Shown here piece after piece: positions 1 through 4,300 of a stretch of DNA of 6,950 bases. The stretch lies in the IMG/VR virus record IMGVR_UViG_2728369593_000029. One strand, 5' to 3'. The notes below the pieces were generated by a model that saw only the letters and a list, made by a program, of their open reading frames with translations, searched no databases and had not been told where the DNA came from. This stretch comes from a virus (lineage: Duplodnaviria > Heunggongvirae > Uroviricota > Caudoviricetes). The translations under genes and the position numbers were made by a program. The number at the start of each line of letters is the position of its first letter. Positions within the stretch are counted from its first letter, which is position 1.

Positions 1-204
1 ATGAACCGTTATTTCACATGCTCGTTTTGTGGCGCAAACGAGCTGCAGGCAAAAAAAATCATCGCCAAAGGCGGAAAAGATGAAGTTGCTATCTGCTCTG
101 AGTGCGTAGTCTTGTGTGTCGGGGCATTAATCAATATCAGCACAACTATTCAGTTCACACCAAATGAGAATGCGCCTTTAGATGCGCGGAAATCTGGAGG
201 TTAA
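1..204 (+). CDS. Small ClpX-type C4 zinc-finger domain protein (67 aa)
   Basis: Two CxxC pairs in the pattern of the ClpX N-terminal zinc-binding domain: FTCSFCG ... AICSECVVLC. ATG is at window position 1 and TAA at 202..204; the upstream context is not visible, so the start is uncertain. Confidence 0.55.
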   Translation: MNRYFTCSFCGANELQAKKIIAKGGKDEVAICSECVVLCVGALINISTTIQFTPNENAPLDARKSGG

Positions 205-293
205 AGAACAAAATGAAAGTCCAGATTTTAAACAATAACTGTGAAGTCGTTTGGGCGTAAAACATGACCGCGCGTAGACCAAGGGAGGAAAAA

Positions 294-470
294 GTGGGAA
301 TAGTTAGAAATCAAGCAGATATATTGAAAATCAGCTCTGAATTGCTTGGAGTTTTGAAAAGTGAGCTCACCGCACATGGCATCGAGCCCACTGACGAAAA
401 TTTAAGTTGGGTTTTGTCGATTATTCAACAATCACTCAAGCCCAGCCTCAGCAAACTTTTTATCGAGTAG
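294..470 (+). CDS. Hypothetical small protein (58 aa from GTG; alternative ATG start at 264)
   Basis: Strong Shine-Dalgarno AAGGGAGG at 281..288, 5 nt upstream of GTG 294. No recognisable domain. The 3' end overlaps the convergent ORF 432..623 by 39 nt. Confidence 0.35.
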   Translation: MGIVRNQADILKISSELLGVLKSELTAHGIEPTDENLSWVLSIIQQSLKPSLSKLFIE

Positions 471-623
471 TGCTTCGAACTTATCGTAAAGCTTGCTTAT
501 GTCGTCTATCGGGTTTTCTGACGTACTGTAATTTTTATCTGATGTCATGGCAGCAGTCTGATATGCAGTGTGAGTCTTAACCGATAGTTGGAATAAATAA
601 AGAATTTTTTCTTCTTTGGTCAT
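432..623 (-). CDS. Hypothetical small protein (63 aa)
   Basis: Minus-strand ATG at 623..621 preceded by an AAGGAAA RBS. Translation MTKEEKILYLFQLSVKTHTAYQ... is protein-like. It sits in AT-rich DNA with no competing + strand ORF between 471 and 623. The longer 77-aa version (start at 665) lacks an RBS. Confidence 0.35.
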   Translation of the reverse strand: MTKEEKILYLFQLSVKTHTAYQTAAMTSDKNYSTSENPIDDISKLYDKFEALLDKKFAEAGLE

Positions 624-881
624 GACTATTTCCTTCTTGGCTATATGAAAACACCAAGATACCACCGAGCCTGAAGTGGTGAAAAGACAGGCACATAACA
701 GCTAAGTATTTTCAACCAGAGAGAATCCTTAGCGTTGTGGTGAATGCGCAGGCTGATGCGCGAAAGACATTGCAGCTATTGCGGAAAAGAGCTGTTCGGC
801 GGGGCAATTAAACGCCCGTGAGAGTCTGAAATAACCGCAAGCCGGAGATCAGCACCGGTCACCACAACAGCCACTGCTTTG

Positions 882-927
882 GCGGTACCAGTTTGTACAC
901 TTGCTTCCGGCTGGTACCGCTCTTTTT
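882..927 (+). terminator. Perfect 10-bp inverted repeat (GCGGTACCAG / CTGGTACCGC) with 19-nt loop followed by a T-run; possible terminator or protein-binding palindrome
   Basis: Read directly: gcggtaccag at 882..891 and ctggtaccgc at 911..920, then tcttttta. The loop is long for a classical intrinsic terminator, hence low confidence. Confidence 0.3.
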
Positions 928-1064
928 ACAAAACAGAGAAGAGCATCACCGGACGACGGGCTCATAACCCAATCCATCCGGGCGGCTGCCACCGCAGGTG
1001 TTCTTCTCTGTTTTGTGGAGAAACCAACCGACCTTGCAGGGTCGATATGATGAGGAGCAGCAAA

Positions 1065-1427
1065 ATGGCTAGCGAACGCAGTACTGATGTGCAGGCATTT
1101 ATCGGGGAGCTGGACGGCGGCGTATTTGAAACCAAAATCGGCGCAGTTCTCAGTGAAGTCGCTTCCGGTGTGATGAACACGAAAACCAAAGGTAAGGTCT
1201 CGCTCAACCTGGAAATCGAACCGTTTGATGAGAACCGAGTGAAAATCAAACACAAACTCTCATATGTTCGCCCGACTAACCGCGGGAAAATTTCCGAAGA
1301 AGACACCACCGAAACGCCGATGTATGTCAATCGCGGTGGTCGCCTGACTATTCTGCAGGAAGACCAGGGACAATTACTGACTCTTGCCGGTGAACCTGAC
1401 GGAAAACTCCGCGCAGCAGGTCGTTAA
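1065..1427 (+). CDS. yfdP: YfdP-like prophage protein (120 aa), function unknown
   Basis: ATG at 1065 with GAGGAG RBS at 1052..1057. The 120-aa length and position immediately upstream of the YfdQ-like gene match my recollection of K-12 yfdP. The ORF-track N-terminal extension (TTG at 879) runs through the hairpin and has no RBS. Confidence 0.65.
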   Translation: MASERSTDVQAFIGELDGGVFETKIGAVLSEVASGVMNTKTKGKVSLNLEIEPFDENRVKIKHKLSYVRPTNRGKISEEDTTETPMYVNRGGRLTILQEDQGQLLTLAGEPDGKLRAAGR

Positions 1428-1493
1428 TATCGTTGTTAATAAACTAATTATTCATCTTATCACTGAATATCTTTAATATAGTGAGGACTTATT

Positions 1494-2318
1494 ATGTCTC
1501 AAAACTTAGACGCAACCGCAATTAATCAAATCCATGCCCTTATTTCTGCTCAGGGTGTTAATGAAATTATCAGTAAGATTGGTGCCGACGCAGTGGCATT
1601 ACCTGAAAATTTCCGCATTCATGATCTGGAAAAATTTAATTTAAATCGCTTCCGTTTCCGTGGTGCGCTTTCCACTGCCAGCATCGATGACTTTACCCGT
1701 TATTCTAAAGATCTTGCAGATGAAGGCACCCGCTGCTTTATCGATGCTGATAATATGCGTGCCGTCAGTGTGCTTAACCTGGGTACTATTGATGAACCAG
1801 GTCACGCAGATAACACCGCCACTCTCAAACTGAAAAAGACAGCACCGTTCTCTGCCCTGTTGTCTGTTAACGGCGAGCGTAACTCCCAGAAGTCACTGGC
1901 AGAATGGATTGAAGACTGGGCCGACTACCTTGTGGGCTTTGATGCTAATGGTGACGCCATTCAGGCAACAAAAGCGGCTGCGGCAGTCCGTAAAATCACG
2001 ATTGAAGCAAACCAGACCGCTGATTTTGAAGATAATGACTTCAGCGGCAAACGCTCCCTGATGGAATCTGTCGAAGCGAAGACCAAAGACATTATGCCAG
2101 TGGCATTTGAATTTAAATGCGTTCCGTTTGAAGGCCTGAAAGAACGTCCGTTTAAATTACGCCTCAGCATTATCACTGGCGATCGTCCGGTACTGGTTCT
2201 GCGCATTATTCAGCTGGAAGCGGTGCAGGAAGAAATGGCTAACGAATTTCGTGATCTGCTTGTTGAGAAATTTAAAGACAGCAAAGTAGAAACCTTTATT
2301 GGTACTTTCACCGCCTGA
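1494..2318 (+). CDS. yfdQ: YfdQ-like protein (274 aa; DUF2303 family as I recall)
   Basis: Clean 274-aa ORF with GTGAGGA RBS upstream of ATG 1494 and an AT-rich leader. Length and neighbours (YfdP-like upstream, HD-domain YfdR-like downstream) match the K-12 CPS-53 arrangement from memory. Confidence 0.8.
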
Positions 2319-3770: not shown

Positions 3771-4300
3771 GCAAGATTGATTATCAGGCACTGCGTGAGA
3801 TAGCAAAACAGGCAACACAAGGCGAATGGGTCGCATTTATTTCGCCGGGCAAATACGGCACGTACGCCGTGCACACACCAGGAGATAATCATCAAGGAGA
3901 TATTGTCGACTGGCCTGGATTCGACGAACAGAAAAACGCAGAGAACAACGCTCGTTATATCGCAGCTTTCAACCCTGAAGTAGTGCAGGCGCTGTTGGAT
4001 GAACGAGAAGCCCAAAGCAAACGCATTGCAGAACTGGAAGCACGGGAAATAAAACCAGCCAAAGGTGAAGTTCTTGTCGTTGTCTCTGGTTTTACTGGTT
4101 GCGGAAAAAGCGCCATTGCCGGGGAAATAGAAATCGCGATGAAGGCTATTGGTGTACCGGTTAAGTGGACTAATGGCGATGCAGAAAAGCGCATGACAGG
4201 CGCTGACTGGCTGACAGCAATTGAGATGTACAAACCAACTGTGCGCATCGTGGAAGTTAATGTGCCATGCGCCGCTGGCATTCGCATCAAAGGAGAGTGA
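3767..4300 (+). CDS. Ead/Ea22-like prophage protein (177 aa from GTG)
   Basis: AAAGGAGG RBS at 3752..3759 precedes GTG 3767. The N-terminus SKIDYQALREIAKQATQGEWVA is the signature I associate with Ead/Ea22-like proteins of enterobacterial lambdoid prophages, followed by a coiled-coil-like segment (DEREAQSKRIAELEAREIK). The track start at 3731 (GTG) lacks an RBS. Confidence 0.65.
   Translation: MSKIDYQALREIAKQATQGEWVAFISPGKYGTYAVHTPGDNHQGDIVDWPGFDEQKNAENNARYIAAFNPEVVQALLDEREAQSKRIAELEAREIKPAKGEVLVVVSGFTGCGKSAIAGEIEIAMKAIGVPVKWTNGDAEKRMTGADWLTAIEMYKPTVRIVEVNVPCAAGIRIKGE

Follow-up and report, generated by a model that had tools for sequence, protein, structure and literature searches.

What would a phage do with a gene for little more than the zinc-binding domain (ZBD) of a host unfoldase? 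The question is raised by the first open reading frame (ORF) of a 6,950-nucleotide stretch of Caudoviricetes DNA, the window of this study. The initial annotation had described this ORF as a stand-alone mimic of the ClpX ZBD that could titrate adaptors or substrates of ClpXP.

Gene structure, domain identity and fold

The ORF runs on the plus strand from an ATG at position 1 to a TAA stop at 202–204 and comprises 67 codons. The first letter of the window is that of the ATG, and the upstream context was taken from near-identical loci, among them the lambdoid prophage of E. coli ECE170 (L001), which is 99% identical over window positions 1–1500. In L001 the transcript start lies ~100 nt upstream of the ATG, and the nearest upstream ATG is only 6 in-frame codons away. 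A start at position 1 is supported by the N-terminus MN[NRSH]x[FY]TC, which is shared by all homologues. The gene and the parts of its product are as follows.

1–204, plus strand: gene for a stand-alone ClpX-type zinc-binding-domain protein of 67 residues (ORF list; PF06689, 41.4 bits; PHROG 5259; PGAP; purifying selection)
16–120, plus strand: zinc-binding domain proper, residues 6–40, with the β-hairpin and the start of the helix (Pfam; alignment to 2ds5/1ovx; Foldseek)
19–30, plus strand: first zinc knuckle, C7-S-F-C10, in which F9 corresponds to ClpX F16 (C7, F9 and C10 invariant in a 22-sequence alignment)
67–84, plus strand: family-specific hairpin turn, K23-G-G-K-D-E28 (three-residue gap in ClpX in the HMMER alignment; AKGGKDE kept in the close family)
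94–117, plus strand: second zinc knuckle, C32-S-E-C35, and the conserved C39 (CSECVVLC; invariant, and aligned with ClpX C36/C39/C43)
157–201, plus strand: low-confidence C-terminal tail, residues 53–67 (pLDDT below 50 at 53–55 and 58–67; alignment)

The Pfam family zf-C4_ClpX (PF06689) matched residues 6–40 with an E-value of 1.3e-10 and 41.4 bits (gathering cutoff 27). The closest sequences of solved structure are those of the E. coli ClpX ZBD (2ds5 and 1ovx, E ~3e-4), and the alignment pairs CSFCG...ICSECVVLC of the ORF with CSFCG...ICDECVDLC of ClpX. The four zinc ligands, C7/C10 and C32/C35, align with those of the ClpX N-domain and are invariant in 22 relatives, so that this element of the initial annotation held up on inspection. 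Together with C39 they are invariant across all intact homologues, the sole exception being a frameshifted plasmid copy (P0008).

An AF2 model built on 22 relatives has pLDDT values of 75–93 over residues 1–50 and consists of a β-hairpin, a helix at residues 33–52 and a disordered tail. Foldseek placed the ClpX ZBD chains 2ds5, 2ds6, 2ds8 and 1ovx at the top of its PDB matches (target TM 0.80–0.83, probability 1.00), and the model superimposes on the E. coli ClpX ZBD with an rmsd of 1.5–1.7 Å at 36–41% identity; all PDB matches other than ClpX ZBDs had E>1. The PF06689 score, the four cysteine ligands and the ClpX ZBD fold bear out the description of the ORF as little beyond a ClpX-type C4 domain. 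We infer that the protein binds zinc and dimerises, and it is probably a dimer.

Could the ORF be the 5' end of a full-length ClpX gene? This is ruled out by the stop after residue 67, the upstream context and the NCBIfam scores: the ClpX equivalog NF003745 gave 25.8 bits (cutoff 359) and TIGR00382 gave 22.7 (cutoff 370.75), both over model positions 6–48 only. The downstream ORFs in the window are unrelated to ClpX, and an AAA+ module is absent after the zinc finger. The continuation into a ClpX ATPase, which the initial annotation had named as the outcome that would undo its proposal, is thereby excluded, and in the lambdoid prophage setting of L001 the domain is free-standing and prophage-encoded, as had been proposed. 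A component of a defence system was also considered and rejected, as the PADLOC-DB defence models matched the ORF with 0 families at E≤1.

The ORF is under purifying selection, since synonymous sites are saturated (pS 0.70–0.94) while pN is ~0.2 (0.17–0.22) when the E. coli type, the Salmonella type and the 121-aa type are compared with one another.

The tail varies in length and sequence between homologues. Past the ZBD helix, at a variable distance, lies a semi-conserved motif, h-x-[FL]-(0-2)-[AS]-P (window 142–174, residues 48–58), which in the ORF reads TIQFTPNENAP and runs from the last part of the helix into the tail. It was derived also from the tails of P0009, P0010, P0013, P0019 and P0021, and further examples are IDISFPDAP, ITVKFGDAP, LSVKFDYAP and LDMELAP. 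The motif could be a docking peptide.

Position in the early-left operon

In L001 a CI-like repressor is encoded 333 bp upstream of the ORF and in the same direction. The repressor combines an HTH domain with an S24 peptidase domain, and beyond its gene, on the far side from the ORF, are a YdaS-type cro analogue and a CII-like YmfL. Between repressor and ORF there is a promoter with a good sigma-70 match (TTGACA-17-TAGATT), overlapped by 12–21-nt repeats (D3–D5, D7) that recur in the cI/cro intergenic region. The repressor, the promoter and the shared operator repeats identify the ORF as the first gene of a repressor-controlled, pL-type early-left operon. In phage lambda the same position is occupied by N. 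The remainder of the window is early-left operon and encodes YfdP, YfdQ (DUF2303), the HD-domain nucleotidase YfdR, DUF551 proteins, an Ead/Ea22-like protein, a 3'-5' exonuclease and a PrtN-like protein. The Salmonella phages 118970_sal3 and F1055 have the same layout with a different repressor and different operators.

An unannotated 72-nt leader separates the ORF from the pL-like promoter (L001 8910–8981, plus strand) and ends 19 nt before window position 1. It is also present at ~3911–3982 of L002 and in L207–L216.

The ORF starts 80–81 nt past the 26-nt core of this leader in 42 of the 45 distinct loci that carry it, behind at least 6 unrelated promoter/operator types. This fixed distance across operator types ties the gene to the early-left transcript and not to the immunity type.

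Several smaller features of these loci were noted. Downstream in the window lies another small early gene:

264–470, plus strand: small early gene of 68 residues, PHROG 15476 (itself first behind the leader in other phages)

This gene converges with another small conserved ORF at 432–623 on the minus strand (PHROG 2605; RefSeq WP_000159356.1), the two overlapping by ~39 nt; the direction of the latter opposes that of the early-left operon. In ECCHD184 (L217 6408–7298, minus strand) the CI-like repressor gene is separated from the pL-like promoter and leader by an inserted BRCT-domain gene, which may be a moron or a defence gene. In F1055-type loci (L003 ~4190–4225) a GC-rich hairpin and a T run (AAAGCGCC...GGCGCTTT) directly follow the ZBD gene; this element looks like an intrinsic terminator, in which case the rest of the operon would need read-through.

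Relatives and distribution

The ORF is an already known and named object, and it is the position of the gene that is new. It is carried by 98 of 5426 complete E. coli genomes (~2%), and PGAP names its product 'ClpX C4-type zinc finger protein' (WP_033545897.1, WP_001083098.1). Over its full length it belongs to PHROG 5259 (E=2e-31), a group listed with function unknown; the entries of PHROG 5259, PHROG 20296 and PGAP provide a name only, and PHROG 20296 also includes fused forms of 112–121 aa. A search of the literature for ClpX zinc fingers that stand alone or occur in phages found no specific paper.

The close relatives occur in four forms: 67 aa in E. coli, 61–66 aa in Salmonella, 112 aa in Salmonella, and 121 aa. 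The longer forms join the ZBD in frame to one of two different C-terminal modules (L060 for the 112-aa form; L067 and L073 for the 121-aa form), each of which is also found alone as the first ORF behind the leader in other phages (L123, L187, L188). The modules have no Pfam match and belong to no PHROG of known function, and for the 121-aa form a single-sequence AF2 model, with a pLDDT of 44, could not be used. In phage 118970_sal3 the 112-aa form is split by a frameshift into ORFs of 57 and 56 aa.

When 1.84 billion representative proteins were searched with a profile, 600 matched at E≤1e-3. Among the best 150 of these, almost all are 27–300 aa long, many have 2–4 tandem fingers, and two are of ClpX length. 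The top match (P0016) is a 2505-aa protein with 37 separate ClpX-type zinc-finger matches. A scan of the GTDB species-representative genomes returned only two clostridial full-length clpX genes. As the best matches are short and few are of ClpX length, stand-alone ClpX-type zinc fingers form a broad class, already catalogued and uncharacterised. The phage ZBD family is an old lineage of this class, and not a host clpX 5' end copied in recent times.

A variable first-gene slot

More than 40 different small first ORFs follow the leader among 148 distinct loci (L086–L205), including the annotated Kil of mEp237. One of these early genes has left a trace in the window:

213–260, plus strand: 15-codon remnant (MKVQILNNNCEVVWA*) of another small early gene (intact elsewhere as the MKVQIL... 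ORF)

The MKVQIL... ORF is the first ORF past the leader in other phages, and in ECCHD184 it follows the ZBD gene directly and at full length (91 aa, L217 7713–7988). The remnant at 213–260 marks a deletion or recombination joint in the slot. The slot for the first early gene is prone to recombination, and the ZBD gene is one of its interchangeable cargo genes; as a cargo hotspot the slot looks comparable to moron and accessory slots. The occurrence of the ORF in 98 complete E. coli genomes against 1386 for the leader indicates that the gene is dispensable for this phage type.

Given such surroundings, the gene might be a passenger, decaying or without function, of a recombination hotspot. The hypervariability of the slot and its many remnants, such as that at 213–260, point that way, as do frameshifted copies (phage 118970_sal3 and the plasmid copy P0008). 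However, the strong purifying selection largely refutes this explanation, the zinc ligands are invariant, and at least 95 near-identical E. coli copies are intact; we therefore consider a passenger very improbable.

Comparison with the docking site of ClpX

The E. coli ClpX ZBD and the ORF protein have in common the CxxC...CxxC C4 site, the fold of a β-hairpin and a helix, and the phenylalanine of the docking pocket, ClpX F16, which is F9 in the ORF and invariant in the 22-sequence alignment. The hairpin strands KLIA and VYI of ClpX are retained as KIIA and V(P)AI, and the hydrophobic core of helix and hairpin is likewise conserved. The proteins differ in that the AAA+ module of ClpX has no counterpart in the ORF protein, which is the product of a separate phage early gene. 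The turn of the hairpin, 'GPS' in ClpX, is 3 residues longer in the ORF, and CNDII on the helix face is replaced by CVGAL. The counterpart of ClpX I46 is A42, at a position that varies (A/V/T/I/K/L), and the position of Y34, a residue which we take to sit at the binding site, is an invariant alanine in the ORF family. The changes at I46 and Y34 and the longer hairpin turn suggest that the partner specificity may differ from that of ClpX. The word mimic is too strong on sequence grounds: the domain, the fold and F9 agree with it, but the identity is 36–41% and the profile prefers other short zinc-finger proteins.

In ClpX, F16 and I46 are pocket residues that matter, and SspB, RssB, trigger factor and lambda O share a hydrophobic region of the ZBD dimer that includes both (PMC7804408). 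The argument from lambda O in the initial annotation does not transfer directly to this locus, as a lambda-O-type replication protein was not recognised by Pfam in a related prophage.

The explanation that we prefer, with a probability of roughly 40%, is that the phage protein acts as a decoy, the free ZBD competing for ligands of the ClpX N-domain. The protein would be made at once after prophage induction or infection. It would then bind what docks on the ClpX N-domain, either adaptors such as RssB and SspB or substrates that depend on this domain, and by keeping them off ClpXP it would stabilise a subset of ClpXP clients and leave the protease pore unblocked. Both the identity of the partner and the effect on ClpXP we infer. 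The idea is plausible because the isolated ClpX ZBD inhibits adaptor-dependent degradation: when added in trans, the purified domain inhibits the RssB-mediated breakdown of sigma-S by ClpXP in vitro (Micevski et al. 2020, PMC7226468). That competitor is likewise a ZBD free of the ATPase and acts by the mechanism proposed here, but it is an experimental fragment of ClpX and not a natural phage gene. The immediate-early position of the gene fits a role in host takeover.

Phages are known to interfere with host proteases; T4 PinA and T7 Gp4.5 are protease inhibitors that act on Lon. The anti-adaptors IraD, IraM and IraP, which are directed against RssB, are small proteins that reshape regulated host proteolysis and follow the logic of the decoy. 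Neither the anti-adaptors nor the phage inhibitors are related to the ORF protein in sequence or fold, and none of them is the copy of a domain from the unfoldase of the protease itself. For IraD, the pairing with RssB is given in PMC6546054.

The main rival would be a different use of the same fold, as a generic dimerisation or docking scaffold, with a target among host or phage proteins unrelated to ClpXP, for instance in cell division, replication or defence, in the manner of other small takeover proteins of the early-left region. Only 2 of the best 150 profile matches are of ClpX length, which suggests that the fold has uses other than docking to ClpX, and the ~600 relatives, mostly short and many with tandem fingers, indicate that it is in wide use beyond ClpX. 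In-frame fusions to two unrelated modules fit an add-on module for interaction or dimerisation; the surface residues around the ClpX docking pocket differ; and the slot carries many unrelated small proteins, including the annotated Kil. The ClpX N-domain is nevertheless the nearest characterised relative by sequence and fold, F16 and the hairpin strands are conserved, and the data, in which a PADLOC match is absent, do not indicate an alternative partner. We regard the scaffold as possible but doubtful.

The protein might also act on ClpX directly. By forming a heterodimer with the N-domain of new ClpX subunits it could poison or re-target the hexamer, and the fused forms could tether their module to ClpX as an adaptor or degradation handle. 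The ClpX ZBD dimer is very stable and is formed within the hexamer, so that an exchange of partners is unlikely. The identity of 36–41% and the many changes on the helix surface (CNDII to CVGAL) also make specific pairing uncertain. The conserved hydrophobic core of helix and hairpin and the existence of fused variants speak for the heterodimer, as does the dimerisation of the ClpX N-domain, which is named in the titles of Wojtyra 2003 and Donaldson 2003 as cited in PMC7804408. On balance such a heterodimer seems improbable.

The decoy would have consequences that set it apart from known inhibitors. We propose, tentatively and with some doubt, that a natural phage copy of the docking domain, made first, switches off only the adaptor- or N-domain-dependent proteolysis by ClpXP and leaves the pore active. 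If this is true, it would be a form of interference with a protease for which no phage example has yet been described. The processes affected could include RssB/sigma-S, the SspB-assisted clearance of ssrA-tagged proteins, and unstable phage or antitoxin clients, and the 112- and 121-aa fusions would act as effectors that are brought to the same ligands. A true decoy would also be the first natural viral copy of the docking domain of a host AAA+ unfoldase that reprograms proteolysis selectively, and a genetic tool with which to separate adaptor-dependent from adaptor-independent functions of ClpXP.

A widespread leader RNA

The leader upstream of the ORF is widespread and may prove more important than the ORF itself. 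The 72 nt are ~97% identical between the E. coli and Salmonella loci, whereas the promoters that flank them are different and the coding sequence next to them is synonymously saturated. The 26-nt core has at least 120 exact matches in IMG/VR, and leader-like sequence was found in 53 phage records, in all of which it is unannotated. These records include the Shigella phages SfII, SfIV and SfV, Salmonella ST64B, mEp237 and mEp460, and phages of Yersinia, Klebsiella, Pectobacterium (ZF40) and Aeromonas. The leader is also carried by lytic T5-like phages of Providencia and by a Drulisvirus; both temperate and lytic phages are represented, from at least 8 genera. In the temperate phages ZF40, YeP2, SfV, SfIV, SPN3UB and pAEv1818 it lies just downstream of the annotated repressor gene. 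Of the complete E. coli genomes, 1386 of 5426 (26%) contain the leader, and the matches listed are all without an annotated feature.

From 30 diverse copies a structure was derived that consists of a 6-bp closing stem, an invariant 3-bp hairpin and a 5-bp hairpin. In this alignment 94.3% of cells are paired, and 11 of the 14 pairs have changed on both sides; none of 500 shuffles reached the observed value, and slid controls paired at most 44.5%. The single-sequence fold is no more stable than that of shuffled sequences (z=+1.2), and the structure is therefore visible only through covariation. Rfam gave no match to the leader even at E≤5, and none in the window at the gathering threshold; a literature search with sequence strings for the leader RNA found nothing relevant. 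Identity with the put RNA of HK022 was considered and rejected: the covariance model of the leader had no match in the HK022 genome at E≤1, and a closing stem around two hairpins is unlike put, which has a V-shaped two-stem architecture (PMC9378689).

A structured RNA 20–25 nt upstream of a gene in the position of lambda N raises the possibility that the ORF protein is a nucleic-acid-binding regulator of the leader RNA or of early-operon DNA, acting in the manner of N. However, the leader is present in 14 times more genomes than the ORF and precedes more than 40 different first ORFs, from which it follows that the RNA does not need the ORF protein. In addition, the protein is nearly neutral (7 K/R against 6 D/E), and we know of no nucleic-acid binding by the ClpX ZBD. 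Such a regulator is highly unlikely. For the leader itself, its location directly after early promoters, whichever gene follows, suggests a cis-acting element in transcription or RNA fate. We put it forward as a candidate processive antiterminator.

Matches to boxA within the window were no commoner than expected by chance, and none was counted as a boxA. Outside the window, a short hairpin and an rrn-type boxA, GCTCTTTAACAA, come at once after the leader in SfIV (L212 ~1566–1610) and Kati (L213 ~788–832), and in the T5-like Providencia phage PSTCR5 (L209 ~1575–1600) the leader and hairpin are followed by the boxA version CGCTCTTTAAAAA. The order of hairpin and then boxA in these three loci is the same as in rrn leaders.
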